A DNA stretch of 64,000 bases from Gemmatimonadota bacterium. GTDB taxonomy: Bacteria > Gemmatimonadota > Gemmatimonadetes > Longimicrobiales > Gaopeijiaceae. The notes under the pieces were generated by a model, which was not told where the DNA came from, ran no database searches, and was given only the letters and a program-made list of their open reading frames with translations. Shown here piece by piece: positions 24,307 through 31,845 of this stretch. The position numbers and the translations under genes were made by a program. Within the stretch, counting starts at the first letter, position 1; each line of letters starts with the position of its first letter. The DNA lies in NCBI GenBank assembly GCA_039589315.1, contig JBDHHQ010000005.1, positions 32,001-96,000 on the forward strand, given 5' to 3'.

Positions 24307-25773
24307 TCAGGCATTGAAGGGGTCGAATCCCTGCAGCCCCTGCTTGCCGGGACTCTCGTGCCTGGATCTCTGGTAGCCGCCGGCGTCGGAGCGGCTGATC
24401 CGCCGCTCGGCCACCAGGGCCTCCAGCACGAGCTCGCAGGCCGCGGCACGGACCCCCGGCGCCGCGGCAGCCGAGGCCAGGCCCACCTGCTCCACCACGT
24501 CGAGCAGCCCGGGCACGGTCTGGAACCCCTGGACGCACGCCTCGGCCGACGCATCCGGCGAGACCTGAAGGGCCCCGCCCGTCTCGAAGTACTCGACCAC
24601 GTCTTCGACGTCGGCTCCACCGGCACGGTTGTTGAACGTCATCCCCGCGGCTTTGGCGATGAGCTCCGAGGCGATGCGCTCGCTACCGTGCAGCTCCCCC
24701 TCGTACTCCAGCTCCATCTTGCCGGTGATGGCCGGAAGCGCGGCGTATATGTCGCCGATCCTGGGAACCACGGGAGCCTCGTCGAGGAGGAGGGCACGCC
24801 GCTCCGCGTTGGACACCATGCTCTCCGTGACCGAGATCGGCATGCGCTGACTCACCCCGGAGCGCTGATCCACGCGGCTGTCGGCGCGCGCGAGGAACGC
24901 TACCTGCTCCACGAGCTCGGCCACGAAGTCGGGCACCTCCACGTCCAATCCGGTGCCGTCGCGCTGCACCCACGCCTCCTGCGACGTGATGGAGACGCCG
25001 GTTCCCACGTCCTGAGGGTAGTGGGTCTGGATCTCGGCGCCGATGCGGTCCTTGAGGGGGGTGATGATCTTGCCTCGGGCCGTGTAATCCTCGGGGTTCG
25101 CGGTGAACACCATCATGACGTTGAGGGGCAGCCGGATGGGGTATCCTTTGACCTGCACGTCCCCTTCCTGGAGGATGTTGAAGAGCCCCACCTGGATCTT
25201 GCCGGCCAGATCGGGTAGCTCGTTGATCGCGAAGACGCCACGGTTGGCTCTGGGCAGAAGGCCGTAGTGGATGGTGAGCTCGTCGGCCAGGATATGGCCG
25301 CCGCGGGCTGCCTTGATGGGGTCGACGTCACCGATGATGTCGGCGATGGTCACGTCCGGAGTGGCGAGCTTCTCGACGTAGCGGTGATCCCGGGGCACCC
25401 ACTCCACCGGCGCATCGTCGCCGTGCTCCTCGAGCAGGAGCCTGCCGTACTTGGAGATGGGGTGGAAGGGATCGTCGTTGATCTCGGAGCCCTGGAGAAT
25501 CGGTATCTCCGGGTCCAGCAGATCGACGAGTTGCCGGAGGATTCGGCTCTTGGCCTGGCCCCGGAGCCCCAACAGGATGAAGTCGTGACGCGCCAGGACA
25601 GCGTTCACGATCTGGGGGATCACCGAGTCCTCGTAGCCCACGATCCCGGGAAACAGGGATTCCTGCCCACGCAACTTCCCCACCAAGTTCGCCCGCATCT
25701 CGTCCTTGACGGGGCGGCTCACGTATCCTGCGGCCCGAAGGTCGCCGACGGTCGCGGGCATCGATCCAGCCAT
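24307..25773 (-). CDS. Mg-chelatase ChlI-like AAA+ ATPase
   Basis: Variant Walker A GLRGQAKS, YVEKLATPD, FAINELPDL, TANPEDYTARGKIITPLKDRIG. Confidence 0.85.
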   Translation of the reverse strand: MAGSMPATVGDLRAAGYVSRPVKDEMRANLVGKLRGQESLFPGIVGYEDSVIPQIVNAVLARHDFILLGLRGQAKSRILRQLVDLLDPEIPILQGSEINDDPFHPISKYGRLLLEEHGDDAPVEWVPRDHRYVEKLATPDVTIADIIGDVDPIKAARGGHILADELTIHYGLLPRANRGVFAINELPDLAGKIQVGLFNILQEGDVQVKGYPIRLPLNVMMVFTANPEDYTARGKIITPLKDRIGAEIQTHYPQDVGTGVSITSQEAWVQRDGTGLDVEVPDFVAELVEQVAFLARADSRVDQRSGVSQRMPISVTESMVSNAERRALLLDEAPVVPRIGDIYAALPAITGKMELEYEGELHGSERIASELIAKAAGMTFNNRAGGADVEDVVEYFETGGALQVSPDASAEACVQGFQTVPGLLDVVEQVGLASAAAAPGVRAAACELVLEALVAERRISRSDAGGYQRSRHESPGKQGLQGFDPFNA

Positions 25774-26029
25774 GATATTCCCAATCCCGGCCGTTACGGC
25801 CGGTTCGTGTCCGAGTAGTGGCCGTCCGATCACGGGTAGGCTCGGCGGTCTTTCTCGCCGTTGCCTGGTCCCGGATGCGGCGAGGTTGGGACGCTTGCTT
25901 CCACGGGCTGTTCGAACCGGAGGCCTGGATCCCCCGTCAGGGATCCGGAGGCAAAGCAATGGGTACCCCGTGCCCGGAGTCCTGATCCACGAAGCCGACC
26001 CCACGCACCAGCGATCCTCGAGGAGCAGC

Positions 26030-27712
26030 ATGTCCGAACTCCCGGCACTATCCGGCACGGTCCGCCCCGGCGCATATCAGCCCGATCTGCCCGAGAGCCG
26101 GCTCATTCTGGAGGAGACTCCCGATGGGGAAGCGGTTCCCATGGACGTGCTGTTCGTGGGTGCCGGACCCGCCGGTCTCGCGGGGGCCGTCGAGCTGGCT
26201 CGTCTCGTGCAAAGAGACAACGAGGATGGCGGAGAGCTGGGTGAGATCGAGATCGGGGTGCTCGAGAAGGCCGGACAGCTCGGTGAGCACAGCCTTTCGG
26301 GTGCAGTGGTGAACCCGAGGGCCTTCATCGAGCTGTTCCCCGAGATGGACCCGGCAGAGTTCCCCCTGCGCGGCCCCGTCACGGACGAAGCCGTGTATCT
26401 GTTGACCGAGGGAGGGTCCCACAGGCTGCCGACCCCGCCCACCATGAAGAACCACGGCAACAGGGTGGCGTCCATCTGCGAGATCGTCAGATGGCTGGGT
26501 GAGCGCGCGGAGGGGCTGGGGGTCAACATCTTCCCGGGCTTCCCGGCCGACTCCCTGCTCGTCAGTGGCAGCGGAGTCATCGGCGTGCGGACGACTCCTT
26601 CGGGTCTCGACCGCGACGGAGAGCCCGGCGGCAGCGACTTCATGCCCCCCATGGACCTCACGGGGCGGGTCACGGTGCTGGCGGAAGGCACCCGGGGCAC
26701 GCTCTCCCAGGCCTGGCTCAGGTGGCAGAACGTGGGCTCCGAGAATCCCCAGATCTTCGCCCTGGGGGTGAAGGAGCTGTGGGAGACGGCGCAGCCGCTG
26801 GACCGGGTCATCCATACCCTGGGCTGGCCGCTGCCCAAGGACGCCTTCGGTGGGAGCTGGATGTATCCGATGGAGGACAACCTCGTTTCCCTGGGCCTCG
26901 TCGTGGGACTGGACTACCGGGACGCTCGCCTCGACGTGCACGAGCTGCTCCAACGTATGAAGCTCCACCCGCTGTTCAAGCCCTACCTCGAGGGCGGTGA
27001 GCTGGTGGAGTGGGGCGCGAAGACCATTCCGGAGGGGGGCTTCTACTCGGTTCCCGTGCGCCGTCACGGCGACGGCCTGGTCATGGTCGGCGACTCCGCG
27101 GGCTATGTGGATGTCCCCTCCCTCAAGGGGATCCACTACGCCATGCATTCGGGCATTCTGGCCGCTCGGACCATCTTTCGAGCCCTCAAGAAGGATGACA
27201 CCTCGGAGGCGGGCCTACGCTCCTACACCGACGCGGTGGACACCAGCTACATCATGGCGGACCTGAAGAAGACCCGGAACATGCGACTCGCCTTCAAGAG
27301 CGGCTTCTACCGGGGAGGGCTGAAGGCCGGGCTGATGACGCTGACCGGCGGGAGCTTTCCCGGTGGACGAATCTCGGTTCCCGAGGACGTGGACGAGACA
27401 CGCACGGTCGGGAGCGGGGGGCCCCGGGTGTCGCCGGACGGCAAGCTCACGTTCTCGAAGGTCGATGCGGTCTTCAAGTCGGGGAACCAGACCCGAGATG
27501 ACATCCCGCCGCACTTGCTGGTCGGCCAGGACGTCTCGGCCGAGGCCGCCGAGCTGTATGTCCACATGTGTCCGGCGGGGGTCTACGAGCGCAACGGGGA
27601 CGAGCTGGTTGTGAACGCTCCCAACTGCGTGGACTGCAAGGCCACGGACGTCCTCGGGCCGCGGTGGATGCCCCGCGAGGGCGGCAGCGGGCCCGCCTAC
27701 AGACGGATGTAG
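26030..27712 (+). CDS. Electron-transfer flavoprotein:quinone oxidoreductase
   Basis: DVLFVGAGPAGL, HSLSGAV, LGVKELW, HTLGWPL, GAKTIPEGG, KGIHYAMHSG, C-terminal CPAGVY..NCVDCK; GAGGAG RBS. Confidence 0.92.
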   Translation: MSELPALSGTVRPGAYQPDLPESRLILEETPDGEAVPMDVLFVGAGPAGLAGAVELARLVQRDNEDGGELGEIEIGVLEKAGQLGEHSLSGAVVNPRAFIELFPEMDPAEFPLRGPVTDEAVYLLTEGGSHRLPTPPTMKNHGNRVASICEIVRWLGERAEGLGVNIFPGFPADSLLVSGSGVIGVRTTPSGLDRDGEPGGSDFMPPMDLTGRVTVLAEGTRGTLSQAWLRWQNVGSENPQIFALGVKELWETAQPLDRVIHTLGWPLPKDAFGGSWMYPMEDNLVSLGLVVGLDYRDARLDVHELLQRMKLHPLFKPYLEGGELVEWGAKTIPEGGFYSVPVRRHGDGLVMVGDSAGYVDVPSLKGIHYAMHSGILAARTIFRALKKDDTSEAGLRSYTDAVDTSYIMADLKKTRNMRLAFKSGFYRGGLKAGLMTLTGGSFPGGRISVPEDVDETRTVGSGGPRVSPDGKLTFSKVDAVFKSGNQTRDDIPPHLLVGQDVSAEAAELYVHMCPAGVYERNGDELVVNAPNCVDCKATDVLGPRWMPREGGSGPAYRRM

Positions 27713-27857
27713 CCGCCGGGCCCCTGAACCCGGGTCGCCTGCAGCGGTCGAACGAAGAGCGCCCCCGATCGTCGTGATCGGAGGCGCTCTCTTGCCTTCC
27801 GGCGCTTTTGGACTCGGGCGGCTCAATCCACGGAGCGGCGCGGGTCGGAGACGCGGA

Positions 27858-28034
27858 TCATTCGCCGAAAGGGCGCTTGTGCTCCTCCTCGGCGGTCGCC
27901 ACGCCGGTGAGCTCGAGGGGACGGGCGTCTTCCGCCATCTGTCTCAGGGCCTGGGCCACCTTGGGGCGGCCGCCCCGGTCCTCCCGCAGCGCGGCCCTCA
28001 AGAGCCATTCGCTTCTACCGAACGCGTCGTTCAT
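27858..28034 (-). CDS. Small hypothetical protein (58 aa)
   Basis: GGGAGG RBS just before ATG 28034; sigma54-like promoter upstream; helical sequence MNDAFGRSEWLLRAALRE... Confidence 0.5.
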   Translation of the reverse strand: MNDAFGRSEWLLRAALREDRGGRPKVAQALRQMAEDARPLELTGVATAEEEHKRPFGE

Positions 28035-28165
28035 CGTCTTCCTCCCGCGGCACCCACTCTCGTCTCGGAGTCGACCGGCCTGTCTCGGGTCGAGAGAAGC
28101 TCGGAACGCCCTGCTGAGTAGGATCTGGCGGACCTCGTTTGTGGGTTGTTCCCGGTGCGATTCCA

Positions 28166-28181
28166 TGCATCGAGCGTGCCA
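28166..28181 (-). promoter_or_regulatory. Putative sigma54 (-24/-12) promoter
   Basis: Minus strand TGGCACGCTCGATGCA matches TGGCACG-N4-TTGCW with one mismatch and exact GG-N10-GC spacing. Intergenic, pointing at the 58-aa ORF. Confidence 0.55.
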
Positions 28182-28472
28182 CGAGAGGTCGGCGAGGGGA
28201 GAGGACTCCGTAAGTTTCACCTCAACAACGCGTTGGACGTCAGGTGCATGTCGCCGGGTCCAGGCGGGCTGGCCGGCCGATGACCTCGAAACGCGGCAGG
28301 ATCTGTCATCTCGCGGGACTCGTGGTCCCGCCTCCGCCACAGCGTCCCATTCGTGCATTCCCCGGCACACCGATCCAGGGCATCTTCGGCCGTGTCGCCG
28401 AGGCTCCGGAGCAACGCGACGGATGAGACAGAGTGGGCCGGAAGGCCGGCCCGGAAACCTCGGGAGGACATC

Positions 28473-28748
28473 ATGAGAACTCGAACGATCGCCATGGCCC
28501 TCGCTTCAACCCTGGCGGGCGCCGGATGGGTTTGGGCGGACTGCGCCCAGTACATCTCCGGCGGCGCGGACAGCCCCTCGAGCGGCTACCTGCTGGGAGA
28601 GACGCTGGTGACGGAGGAGACGAGCTACGGGGCGGACGCGGGCGTCTACGCCGGGCGCCGGGTGAGCCAGACCTGGTCGGTGGGACACTACCGGATGAGT
28701 GACGGCTCGACCATCGACGTCGACTGCCGGACCTACACGCAGATCTGA
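28473..28748 (+). CDS. Small secreted two-cysteine protein A (91 aa)
   Basis: GGAGG RBS; signal peptide MRTRTIAMALASTLAGAGWVWA; Cys24 and Cys85; GC-biased third codon positions. Confidence 0.75.
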   Translation: MRTRTIAMALASTLAGAGWVWADCAQYISGGADSPSSGYLLGETLVTEETSYGADAGVYAGRRVSQTWSVGHYRMSDGSTIDVDCRTYTQI

Positions 28749-28755
28749 GGGACGC

Positions 28756-28785
28756 GGGGGCGGCCGGCTCGTACCGGTCGCCCCC
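28756..28785 (+). terminator. Stable stem-loop after the small secreted gene (mRNA stabiliser or attenuator, no long U-tract)
   Basis: GGGGGCGGCCGG-CTCGTA-CCGGTCGCCCCC, a 12-bp stem with one G-U pair. Confidence 0.5.
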
Positions 28786-28811
28786 CGTTCGCGCACTCTT
28801 GGACGGAGTCG

Positions 28812-29858
28812 GTGCCAGTGCAAGTACAGCGTTACCGGAGCGTCGCGGCCGCGACAGCGGCCCTGTCGGCCATCTTCGGGTGTTCCTGTCGCCCGGCCAG
28901 GGAGGTGCCGGCCGAGGTCGTCTTGGAGGGCGCGCTTCGACCGGTCGAGCTGACGGCCCAACGGGTGGAGACGATGGAAGACACGTTGGGCTTCCACGCT
29001 GCCACGGACCTTGTGCCCGTTCCGGGAGGCTACCTGGTGATCGACGCGGGCAATGACAGGCTCGTGAGGTTGGACCGGAGCCTGGAGCCCGTGGGGGTGA
29101 TCGGTCGAAGTGGATCGGGTCCGGGCGAGCTGGAGGCGCCACTGGTGGGGGACCTGACCCCAGACGGCGTGGCTGTCGTGGAGCTCTCCAACGGACGGGT
29201 GTCGTTCTTCACCTTCGGAGGCGTGTTTCAGCGCGTCGTCGCCCTCCCCGGGCGGTGGGGAGACCTGGCGGTGGGGCCCAAGGGCGATTTGTTCCTCGCG
29301 AGCGCGCCCGCCCACGTATTCCTCACACGGATCGACGCGAACGGGGAGAGCATGCCGTTCGCCAGGAGGATGCATGCGCGCCAGGAGCCCTCCGGGGCAC
29401 CCGAGGGGATCGACCGACGCGACAGGGTGGCCGTAACGGATGCAGGCTCCGTCGCAGTGCTGGACAACACGGAGGGTCATGTGCTGCTGTACGGCAATGA
29501 CGGTTCCCTGGAGAGGGCCGTACGCCTTCCGGATTCGGTGGTGCAACGAATCCGGTCCCGGAACGAATCACTCCGGAGCCGGCTCGCCAGGCAGGGTCGC
29601 CGGGTCGTCGGCGCCCACATCGCAAAGACCTTGAAGCGCCAGCCAGACGGACGGCTTCTCGTCCTCTTCACGGCCTCGCCCCATTTCGGCATCCTTCTCG
29701 AGCCTGCTTCCCTCCGCGGCCGTCTCCTTTCGGTACCCGAACAGTCGGGCCCCTGGGAGCCGCTTCTCAATGCGGCTGCGGCGGTGGTCGAGGGTGACGA
29801 GATCACTGTCCTGCACACGTACGGGGTCAGCCGCTACAGACTCGGCGACGGATCGTGA
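28812..29858 (+). CDS. NHL/6-bladed beta-propeller lipoprotein
   Basis: Lipobox-like IFG-C; YLVIDAGNDRLVRLD, IGRSGSGPGEL, LAVGPKGDLFL, VLLYGNDGSLER. The start is uncertain. Confidence 0.7.
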   Translation: MPVQVQRYRSVAAATAALSAIFGCSCRPAREVPAEVVLEGALRPVELTAQRVETMEDTLGFHAATDLVPVPGGYLVIDAGNDRLVRLDRSLEPVGVIGRSGSGPGELEAPLVGDLTPDGVAVVELSNGRVSFFTFGGVFQRVVALPGRWGDLAVGPKGDLFLASAPAHVFLTRIDANGESMPFARRMHARQEPSGAPEGIDRRDRVAVTDAGSVAVLDNTEGHVLLYGNDGSLERAVRLPDSVVQRIRSRNESLRSRLARQGRRVVGAHIAKTLKRQPDGRLLVLFTASPHFGILLEPASLRGRLLSVPEQSGPWEPLLNAAAAVVEGDEITVLHTYGVSRYRLGDGS

Positions 29859-30520
29859 TCCGGGTCGTTCGGTCGCTTCTGTCGGTGGCCGTGCCGACCG
29901 TCGTGGCGCTCGCGCTGGCGCTAGCCTCGGCAAGTGTCACCCGCTCTCCCGGGCCCAGGCTCGTCACCGTCGCCGATCATGTTCCTGCGGCGCTCGAAGG
30001 CGCCGGCGTCTCAATCGGTCCAGGCAGGGGGACGCTCACCGTGCGCGTGGTCGGCGACTACGAGTGCTCGGCTTGCGAGGCTCTGGACAGACGGGTGGGT
30101 CGCAGATTGCGAGCCCTGGCCGCCCAGGGCCGCATCCGGTACCAGCTGGTGCAGGCGCCTCTCCGGCCGCATCGGCGAGCCCCGAAGGCCGCCGCCGCAC
30201 TCTTCTGCGCCGATCGTCAGGGGGATCCCTGGCGAATGCACACCCTTCTGGTCGAGGGACGGGCCGAGTGGGGGTGGGGAGAGGACCCGCACGAGGCGTT
30301 CCGGCGCTACGCCCGGCGGCTCGACCTGGCGGTGGACGAGTTCCAGAAGTGCCTTGCGTCGCCGTACGCGAGCCTGCGATTGGAGGCGGACCGGTCGGCC
30401 GCGGCCGGCATCGGCGTAGCCGGCGTGCCGGTGATCCTCGTAGGCGCGACCCTGGTCACGCCGACCAGGTCCTTTACGGAGGTCCTGGACGTGGTCGAGG
30501 CCCGGCTGGCGGACCGGTAG
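29855..30520 (+). CDS. DsbA/BdbD-family thioredoxin-fold protein
   Basis: N-terminal signal/anchor, GDYECSAC active site, second Cys pair (LFCADRQG, FQKCL), GVAGVP cis-Pro loop. GTGA overlap with the upstream gene. Confidence 0.85.
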   Translation: MIRVVRSLLSVAVPTVVALALALASASVTRSPGPRLVTVADHVPAALEGAGVSIGPGRGTLTVRVVGDYECSACEALDRRVGRRLRALAAQGRIRYQLVQAPLRPHRRAPKAAAALFCADRQGDPWRMHTLLVEGRAEWGWGEDPHEAFRRYARRLDLAVDEFQKCLASPYASLRLEADRSAAAGIGVAGVPVILVGATLVTPTRSFTEVLDVVEARLADR

Positions 30521-30677
30521 GCCACCCTGGCGCCCCCTCGTACGAGCGCAGATCAGATCGGTCCCGATGGACCATTCGGTAGCCCGCCCCGAGTCGCGAG
30601 GTTCTCCTGTATCGGGGCAGATTCCACTGTCTCCGATGCAACTGCAGATGGGGCACAGAAGCCCCGATGGAGGATCG

Positions 30678-30974
30678 ATGAGCATGGGAGAGCAGGTAGT
30701 GCGAGCCATGGCGGCGGTCCCCGGTGGACGACGCTACCCGCTGGTGGCGGCGATGTTGGTAGCGGCGGCGTCCGCCGGGTGGGCCTTCTTCTGCCCACAG
30801 CAGCTGACGGCGGGGAGCACCAGCCTCGTCCTCGTGGCGGAGGAGCTCCTGATGGATGACGAGTCGGGCGACGGCGCAGTCGTGGGGATCTACAGATCGT
30901 CCAGCGGTGGGACCCTGACCATCGCGTGTCCCAGCGAGCACGCCGACTACGACCGGACGGGCGCATCGGCTTGA
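30678..30974 (+). CDS. Small secreted two-cysteine protein B (98 aa), paralog of 28473-28748
   Basis: GGAGGA RBS before ATG 30678; RR plus hydrophobic signal ending AGWAFF-C; shares VGxYRxSxGxTxxxxC with protein A. Confidence 0.65.
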   Translation: MSMGEQVVRAMAAVPGGRRYPLVAAMLVAAASAGWAFFCPQQLTAGSTSLVLVAEELLMDDESGDGAVVGIYRSSSGGTLTIACPSEHADYDRTGASA

Positions 30975-30975
30975 G

Positions 30976-31845
30976 TCAAGGGGGGGGTGGAGGGCCTTCC
31001 TCCGGGATCTCGATGCCGACGCCTGTCGGGGTCCGTACGAGCCGGGGGAGGATCGCCGGGATCGGGCGCCCCGCAAAGGAGGCCATGAGGGCGTCCACGG
31101 ACTCGAAGCCACTGAGCGTCCCAAGCGTCTTGATGGTCGGAAAGACCATGGGAAGGTCGCCCTCGGCATGCAACTCGAGGGCGATCTCGGGCGGGAGCCA
31201 ACGGGCTTCGGTGATCTCGGAGCCGTCTGGGCGAGCTTCCTCCCCCGCGGGGACCAGAACGGCGAAGAACCGGGTGTCATACCGGCGTGGCTCCGCCCGG
31301 GGCGTGATCCAGTGTGCGATGTACTCGATTGCTCCGCCGCTCAGGGTGACGTCCAGAGTGGCGAGAATCTCTCCGAACGTCCGCTCGCCTCGGTGCAGCT
31401 GGATCTGGGCGGCTCGGGTATCGGGAGAGGCGGCCGCGCTGGCCGCCGGCTCACCGGCCGAGTCCGAGGCAACGAGGATCCCCGTCTCCTCGAAGGCCTC
31501 GCGGATCGCCGCTACGTAGTAGGCGATGGCCGAGGGAGCCTCATCGTAGAGGCGCAGTCGGCCGGCGGCCTGCTCGACGGACAGCCCCTGCACGTGCGCG
31601 AGGACCTCGGGGGCCGCGTCGTCCGTCTCGACACGCCCGCCCGGGAACACGTACGCGCCCGGCACGAAGCCCACGGTCCGGTTGCGGCGCAGCAACAGCA
31701 CCTCGGGCCCGCGATCCGACGGTCGCAGCAGCACCACGGTCGCAGCCGGGCGGGGCGCGACGGGGGAGTCGGGCGGGCGGTCCACGTTTTCGGCGAACCC
31801 CTCGGGAAGGGAGTCAGCCGGGATCTGGAAATCTGGCTCGGTCAT
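30976..31845 (-). CDS. NUDIX hydrolase (Nudt19-like acyl-CoA diphosphatase family)
   Basis: PRPAATVVLLR, YVFPGGRVE, AAIREAFEETG, HWITP..RRYDTRFF. Confidence 0.88.
   Translation of the reverse strand: MTEPDFQIPADSLPEGFAENVDRPPDSPVAPRPAATVVLLRPSDRGPEVLLLRRNRTVGFVPGAYVFPGGRVETDDAAPEVLAHVQGLSVEQAAGRLRLYDEAPSAIAYYVAAIREAFEETGILVASDSAGEPAASAAASPDTRAAQIQLHRGERTFGEILATLDVTLSGGAIEYIAHWITPRAEPRRYDTRFFAVLVPAGEEARPDGSEITEARWLPPEIALELHAEGDLPMVFPTIKTLGTLSGFESVDALMASFAGRPIPAILPRLVRTPTGVGIEIPEEGPPPPP

Follow-up and report, generated by a model that had tools for sequence, protein, structure and literature searches.

Small two-cysteine proteins encoded beside predicted six-bladed propeller lipoproteins, with an accessory DsbA-like gene, in Gemmatimonadota

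In Bacteroidota, the small NVEALA proteins (PF14055) are encoded next to DUF5128/TolB-like six-bladed propeller lipoproteins. Dedicated copies of DsbA-type enzymes include DsbL, which serves arylsulfate sulfotransferase, and BdbA/B, which accompany sublancin, and the mau clusters for methylamine dehydrogenase specify a seven-bladed heavy chain, a light chain with six disulfides and a tryptophan-derived cofactor, and the thioredoxin-like protein MauD. In NHLRC2/SOQ1, a thioredoxin (Trx)-like domain is fused to an NHL propeller with its CxxC site turned towards the face that the propeller uses for binding, and the two are proposed to act together on a partner protein (PMC6107167). The present analysis concerns a cassette of four co-oriented genes at positions 28473-30974 (+ strand) of a 64,000-nt stretch of DNA, hereafter the window, from Gemmatimonadota bacterium (assembly GCA_039589315.1, contig JBDHHQ010000005.1, positions 32,001-96,000 of the forward strand), to which coordinates refer unless another locus is named. 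As read from the sequence, the genes are arranged in the order small protein A, propeller lipoprotein, DsbA-like protein and small protein B. Across related loci, the conserved unit is the small gene plus the propeller gene, and the DsbA-like gene is accessory. The components have known folds, and the small-protein family is new and unnamed. The features of the cassette are as follows.

28462-28467, + strand: ribosome-binding site of small gene A (GGGAGG), read from the sequence, 5 nt upstream of the gene
28473-28748, + strand: small protein A, 91-aa precursor (open reading frame (ORF), family alignment and AlphaFold2 (AF2) model)
28750-28790, + strand: GC-rich stem-loop of 41 nt with 12 uninterrupted pairs (RNA folding)
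28812-29858, + strand: six-bladed NHL-type propeller and probable lipoprotein, 348 aa when translated from its first GTG, at 28812 (AF2, Foldseek and profiles)
29855-30520, + strand: DsbA-like thiol-disulfide oxidoreductase, 221 aa, with the motif CSAC (Pfam and PDB profile match)
30669-30673, + strand: ribosome-binding site of small gene B (GGAGG), read from the sequence
30678-30974, + strand: small protein B, 98-aa precursor and divergent paralog of A (BLASTP, family hidden Markov model (HMM) and ortholog)

A GTG at 28818 is an alternative start of the propeller ORF, and the GTG start of the DsbA-like gene overlaps the propeller stop within GTGA. The GGAGG of small gene B lies merely 4 nt before its ATG, with a second, better spaced ATG at 30684; sites of the GGAGG type also precede the small genes of relatives. 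The statements on sequence made in a preliminary description of this region (four co-oriented genes, the lengths and ribosome-binding sites of the small ones, two cysteines in each small protein and coupling through GTGA) were all correct.

The arrangement resembles that of NVEALA and DUF5128 in that the gene for a small exported protein lies beside that for a six-bladed propeller lipoprotein, sometimes together with a thioredoxin-fold gene, and the propellers themselves appear to be distantly related: 15 of 30 members of the propeller family matched PF17170 (DUF5128, '6-bladed beta-propeller') at E<=0.1 (best 2.6e-6), and the uncharacterised exported protein 4raa was matched by both fold and profile. 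The small proteins differ from NVEALA, as none of 72 family members matched PF14055 at E<=0.1, and they carry only two cysteines and a predicted beta-hairpin. A full-text literature search on DUF5128, PF17170 and NVEALA returned no paper, and in a search with combined terms the NHLRC2 paper alone was relevant. As in NHLRC2/SOQ1, a thioredoxin-fold CxxC module stands beside an NHL propeller, here in translationally coupled genes and, in one relative, in one frame. The partner, however, is DsbA-like (Thioredoxin_4) and not TlpA/DipZ-like, follows the propeller instead of preceding it, and is a separate protein in 14 of 15 loci; moreover, a dedicated gene for a small client is present here, whereas NHLRC2 loci have none. 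With DsbA, MdbA and BdbD, the DsbA-like protein shares a CxxC thioredoxin fold, an inserted helical domain, a membrane anchor and its position as an extra paralog beside a presumed client; it differs from them in its scores of only ~27-33 bits against the Pfam models, its coupling to a propeller and a client with a single predicted disulfide. The cassette includes no partner DsbB/VKOR gene, the VKOR gene of the genome being located on another contig. A propeller, a small exported subunit containing cysteines and a thioredoxin-like helper are also found in the mau system. A quinoprotein of the Mau type was considered and rejected, given that the 72-sequence alignment contains no conserved tryptophan pair and that no electron-transfer genes lie nearby. 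The module is set apart by its family of two-cysteine beta-hairpin partner proteins, which in the genomes searched is restricted to a small number of Gemmatimonadota families.

Recurrence of the cassette among relatives

Among 401 genomes sampled from the order to which the source organism belongs, 33 carried the small-protein family, and a phylum-wide sample of 401 genomes contained it in 31. In the latter sample it was concentrated in the families f1 (10/70 genomes), f3 (2/7), f4 (3/166) and f7 (15/30) and was not found in the other eight. HMMs for the small, propeller and DsbA-like proteins were run over 36 loci from the order, window included. The starts of genes in relatives were set by rule, gene calls in the neighbourhoods were based on the GC content at third codon positions (GC3) and are crude, and many of the genomes are close kin, so that the locus counts are not independent.

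Within the order, a propeller gene followed the small gene directly at 34 of the 36 loci, the exceptions being a contig edge and a weak B-like match. A DsbA-like gene was present at 15 and a second small paralog at 8 of these loci, and all 8 loci with the second paralog also had the DsbA-like gene. Of twenty further loci, 19 belonged to two other families in the class, and the remaining one was an additional, weaker site in G215, a genome of the order itself. Here the pair was intact in 19 of 20 cases and a small-propeller-small arrangement was seen in 5, with an adjacent DsbA-like gene at none of the 20. Taken over all 56 loci, the small gene lay directly upstream of a propeller gene at 53, a DsbA-like gene was present at 15 and a second small paralog at 13. 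The preliminary description had expected homologs of A and B to be linked to propeller and DsbA genes. The link to the propeller held and the four-part cassette recurs, but the DsbA-like gene proved to be far less regular.

The order of the genes varied. A-propeller-DsbA-B was found in the window and two other genomes (G001 and G079), A-propeller-B-DsbA in three (G038, G158 and G183) and A-A'-propeller-DsbA, with two small genes at the front, in two (G176 and G106). Two tandem propeller genes were present in G153, G193 and G301, and at one locus (L060, G297:C1, 2712-7336) a single small gene was followed by five tandem propeller paralogs.

Propellers also occurred on their own. The propeller profile matched 312 of 401 genomes at E<=1e-15, mostly through partial matches to other NHL-like proteins. 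Among 13 strong sites of the family type, taken from genomes with no match to the small gene, 8 had no small-family member upstream even at E<=1, 3 had an intact or fragmentary member and 2 were cut by a contig end; two of the 8 orphan sites adjoined transposase-like genes, as judged by eye. A search for related loci with the window propeller alone returned no relative. Beyond the cassette, the neighbouring genes varied between genera, and since the wider context differs in this way, the small gene and the propeller appear to form a movable unit.

The two-cysteine protein family

The precursor of small protein A has a Sec-type hydrophobic N-terminus ending in ...AGWVWA, followed by D-C (...AGWVWADC...); cleavage sites were read by eye. 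The mature protein would comprise ~69 aa and contains exactly two cysteines near its two ends, Cys24 and Cys85, the second of which lies six residues from the C-terminus. Small protein B (...AGWAFFC...) likewise has exactly two cysteines, 43 residues apart, and lacks most of the central hairpin. The C-terminal 16-mers of A and B are identical at 8 of 16 positions in a gapless alignment, as had been described, and BLASTP aligned the two proteins with an E value of 6e-4 over 70 columns. B and one close relative were then taken out of the 72-row family alignment, and the HMM built from the remaining rows scored mature B with 10.7 bits (E 2e-5 for one sequence); none of 2000 shuffled versions of mature B reached this score, the maximum being 9.4. 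The similarity between A and B, although modest, is above chance at the sequence level, in agreement with the earlier proposal that they are paralogs.

Compared with a genome of the same genus (G001), A had a ratio of nonsynonymous to synonymous differences per site (pN/pS) of 0.18, the DsbA-like gene one of 0.24 and B one of 0.40. GC3 amounted to 0.89 in A and 0.85 in B, and the ortholog of B in the same-genus genome was 70% identical. Because of the family-HMM score beyond that of the shuffles, the pN/pS values and GC3, A and B are regarded as real genes under constraint. B is a short paralog of A that evolves faster.

Word-indexed searching with the small protein recovered no more than 5 close relatives. 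When 1.84 billion cluster representatives were searched with a profile, 106 proteins were obtained at E<=1e-3, 49 of them at E<=1e-10, and almost all were 85-130 aa long. Four of the 106 were long proteins, three with Ig-domain repeats and one with Calx-beta repeats, which matched through many short G-x-Y...C stretches only and were set aside as look-alikes of the motif, not relatives. A weak match in another genome (G019) was dropped, as no propeller adjoined it. In the alignment of 72 sequences, C24, L40, G71, Y73 and C85 were invariant, and the consensus read C-A-x-Y-I-S-x-G...P..G.L.G..TVT...(variable)...Y.VG.Y.M.DG.....C..Y. The conserved ends enclose a segment with many Thr, Gly and Ser residues, the length of which varies from almost nothing (in B) to ~45 extra residues. 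Both cysteines were conserved whether or not the gene of a member adjoined one for a DsbA-like protein.

No Pfam family was matched consistently among the 72 members, and NCBIfam contained nothing relevant for A or B. The names given by the source databases were confined to 'hypothetical protein' (2 of the 13 members listed). The assignment of the small proteins to no named family, made previously from the sequence, was upheld by these searches. An AF2 model of A, computed with the family alignment, reached a predicted local distance difference test (pLDDT) value of 75 and consisted of a short N-terminal strand, a long beta-hairpin (37-54/60-75) and a C-terminal strand. Foldseek found nothing for this model in the PDB at E<=0.001, a wide VIA-align comparison gave a best Z score of 4.6 to SH3/Tudor-like small barrels, which lies inside the noise range of the tool, and the ESM Atlas returned no usable match.

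The propeller, the DsbA-like protein and the flanking sequences

The propeller was modelled by AF2 as six blades (pLDDT 89.8) with a 20-residue helix inserted at 241-260. Its best Foldseek matches were NHL domains (Brat, Thin and TRIM2/3/71; E 1e-12 to 1e-10), and the list also held PDB 4raa, an uncharacterised exported protein of Bacteroides fragilis (3.5e-10), and virginiamycin B lyase. Compared with the PDB, the profile of the propeller family matched NHL proteins at 5e-41 (Thin NHL), peptidyl-alpha-hydroxyglycine lyase (3fvz) at 3e-8 and 4raa at 2e-6. No Pfam model was matched by the window's propeller at E<=1; Pfam NHL was matched by 8 of 30 family members, and together with the matches to PF17170 given above, the sequence comparisons identify the propeller as a probable distant relative of Pfam DUF5128. 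Invariant positions in the family are the lipobox Cys, G101, G103-P-G-E106 (a GxGPGE loop) and P240, and D78, R129 and D297 are among those that are nearly so. Most homologs have a canonical lipobox of the L-A-A/G-C type (LAAC, LTAC or LVAC). The NHL-type fold proposed in the preliminary description was confirmed by AF2 and Foldseek, but the lipobox named there is atypical in the window, with Cys C26 located in ...IFGCSC... (GCSC or IFGC); the same-genus relative has TWAC. Cysteines are present only in the signal and lipobox region of the window's propeller, so that the clients most readily expected within the cassette are the two-cysteine small proteins. A complex of mature A and mature propeller, predicted from their own alignments, scored 0.05 (mark 0.32) and was used neither for nor against binding. 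The same genome, which has a high GC content, also encodes another propeller-like lipoprotein, more distantly related and carrying a GRVGQGPEE loop (L163, G000:C6:90087-93536, at 1177-2760), with no gene for a small cysteine protein evident upstream.

The DsbA-like protein matched Pfam Thioredoxin_4 (PF13462) with 32.8 bits (cut-off 23.2) and DSBA (PF01323) with 27.6 bits (cut-off 25.6), and its closest solved chains were 4pwp/4pwo, annotated 'DsbA' (2e-5). The active site reads CSAC in the window and CPAC, CGWC or CAAC in relatives. The protein further has a second cysteine pair, an N-terminal hydrophobic anchor that lacks a lipobox, and a ...GVPVILV... segment, a candidate for the cis-Pro loop opposite the active site. 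The genome carries five Thioredoxin_4 genes, of which the cassette copy is the most divergent from the Pfam model and one lies directly beside the only VKOR gene, on another contig. Because a separate DsbA-like gene adjoins VKOR elsewhere in the genome, the cassette copy is considered an extra paralog. The earlier view of a dedicated DsbA is compatible with this status, yet the gene is an accessory one, found at 15 of the 56 loci. In all 11 loci in which it directly follows the propeller, the distance between the propeller stop and its start is in the range of -4 to +1 nt. At one locus (L054, G255:C41, 1969-3390), no stop separates the propeller frame from the DsbA-like domain, and the same frame has a single in-frame stop (TAA) ~45 codons past a lipoprotein-type start; the cause may be an error in the sequence, decay to a pseudogene or a true gene fusion.

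The stem-loop at 28750-28790 is situated just after the stop of A and before the propeller (-43.7 kcal/mol, z -2.9). Hairpins that are similar, but different in sequence, were obtained at the same junction in 3 of 3 relatives folded. A helix of at least 9 pairs was found at 15 of 16 junctions in loci with a DsbA-like gene, compared with 15 of 39 in loci without it, and z was below -2 at 20 of 55 small-propeller junctions. The stem-loop is likely an intercistronic attenuator or a stabiliser of the mRNA. A search of Rfam with window positions 27000-31500 gave no match at E<=0.1, and a scan for sigma-70 promoters over 27600-31300 gave 0 sites. One terminator-like site was found inside gene B, which is no more than shuffled sequences give.

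In the window, the cassette is flanked by genes for electron transfer flavoprotein-ubiquinone oxidoreductase (ETF-QO), a NUDIX protein and gamma-glutamyltranspeptidase (GGT). The 760-bp gap upstream of A contains a 58-aa ORF with a strong GGGAGGAAG site (27861-28034, - strand), which matched no Pfam family; by eye, the stretch around it is ~93% identical to the same-genus genome, as against 89% for the whole aligned region. A 583-aa ORF (24310-26058, - strand) gave only sub-threshold AAA+/Mg-chelatase-like matches, and because it overlaps the start region of ETF-QO on the opposite strand, the start codons in this part of the window need curation.

In family f3 (L011, 3357-4595; L013, 6453-7985; L043; L044), a co-oriented gene for a sigma-54 activator lies directly upstream of the small gene. 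The activator has AAA+ and HTH_8 domains and no receiver domain, and a cNMP-binding lyase of the aspartase/fumarase type is encoded downstream. When the regions upstream of 10 small genes were inspected for a sigma-54 promoter (by eye and with a loose regular expression), one loose match was seen at one locus, and the motif was present neither in the window nor in the four loci with the activator next door. recF-gyrB adjoins the cassette in two other groups, and at one locus (L057, 2218-5871, G298) the adjacent gyrB carries an intein with a LAGLIDADG domain. A Sortilin-Vps10/BNR protein of ~1000 aa is encoded downstream of the cassette in L045 (9136-12117), L046 and L048 (directly) and upstream of it in L061.

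Proposed function and competing explanations

The reading favoured here, tentatively and at slightly less than an even chance, is that the small proteins are closed end to end by one disulfide, likely made by the DsbA-like enzyme, and that in the cell envelope they likely dock on the propeller, of which they would be cognate ligands or subunits. The disulfide, the physical binding and a location in the periplasm or at a membrane leaflet are presumed. A and B would be exported by the Sec route and cleaved just before the first cysteine. The DsbA-like enzyme, produced in step with the propeller, would then link the two cysteines, so that the conserved N- and C-terminal segments become a compact, stapled knob; this knob would dock onto the propeller lipoprotein, and the variable hairpin would project outward from it. 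The stem-loop behind the small gene could keep the small transcript in excess of the downstream transcripts. Propeller and thioredoxin-fold protein would act side by side on a small client, similar to what has been proposed for NHLRC2/SOQ1. At loci that have no extra enzyme, a housekeeping DsbA/VKOR would carry out the oxidation, because both cysteines are conserved there too.

Docking of a stapled knob on the propeller is supported by the nearly fixed adjacency of the two genes, the invariant cysteine pair, the close translational link between DsbA-like gene and propeller gene and the purifying selection; the disulfide is predicted from sequence conservation. Several points weigh against this reading. 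The DsbA-like gene is missing at 41 of the 56 loci and is therefore not needed for the core function. The stoichiometry is loose, with up to five propellers for one small gene (L060) or two small genes per propeller, and 8 of the 13 family propeller sites lack an upstream member of the small family (E<=1). Finally, the adjacency by itself would also suit an enzyme-substrate or a toxin-immunity relation.

An enzyme-substrate relation, in which the propeller would cut, cyclise or otherwise modify the small protein and the DsbA-like protein would provide a second maturation step in a Sec-dependent pathway resembling those of ribosomally synthesised and post-translationally modified peptides (RiPPs), is considered unlikely. 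NHL-type propellers do include enzymes, as illustrated by the profile match to peptidyl-alpha-hydroxyglycine lyase (3fvz, 3e-8) and the Foldseek match to virginiamycin B lyase, and the propeller carries the invariant, acidic GxGPGE loop together with the near-invariant D78, R129 and D297. The hairpin behind the small gene also suits such a pathway, hairpins being common after precursor genes. The matches in the PDB are, however, driven by the repeat fold, and the invariant residues of the propeller include no His cluster or recognisable catalytic set. The small protein is conserved at both ends instead of being split into leader and core, and tandem arrays in which a single small gene is followed by as many as five propellers suit binding proteins better than enzymes.

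The small size, predicted disulfide stabilisation and export of the small proteins, their variable central region, their scattered occurrence (33 of the 401 genomes from the order) and the mobility of the cassette as a unit would agree with a secreted antimicrobial peptide that has the propeller lipoprotein as its immunity factor. This explanation is nevertheless judged quite improbable. A Sec signal peptide is the only export signal, and Gemmatimonadota are a diderm phylum; the signal peptides are of the Sec type with A-x-A-like ends, no double-glycine leader is present, and no gene for an ABC/C39 exporter or for outer-membrane secretion is conserved nearby across loci. Only 4 of 36 loci have a gene for an ABC ATPase upstream, and it is encoded on the other strand. 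Purifying selection on A is, furthermore, clear, and the gene evolves about as fast as those next to it. With no exporter and no double-glycine leader, the bacteriocin reading is weak, and the analogy to sublancin drawn in the preliminary description was not borne out, a small immunity protein being absent as well; nor did its self-contained export module hold up, as Sec signal peptides are the sole provision for export. The roles it gave to the propeller, as receptor, chaperone or immunity factor, are conjectural. A different possibility is that small protein and propeller are independent envelope proteins that are neighbours through shared transcription only. The loose stoichiometry and the orphan propellers are consistent with this, but at 53 of 56 loci, in several families and otherwise unrelated contexts, the two genes keep their order and orientation, which speaks against it and makes it a poor prospect.

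In a wider version of the favoured docking model, which is thought doubtful, the cassette would be one branch of envelope systems that span the phylum and combine a Sec-exported, disulfide-stapled mini-protein with a DUF5128/NHL propeller, a thioredoxin-fold enzyme being recruited as needed; in the present branch, a hairpin of tunable length would plug the propeller or extend from it. If true, the stapled-hairpin branch would represent a new modular device for recognition or gating in the periplasm or at the cell surface.

Gemmatimonadota are abundant in soils and sediments and little studied. The analysis defines a new family of small proteins with clear invariant residues and an almost fixed partner gene. 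With one predicted disulfide, ~70 residues and a confidently modelled propeller beside it, the two-cysteine member offers a tractable entry point, and learning what the propeller does with the mini-protein would clarify the function of a great many DUF proteins.

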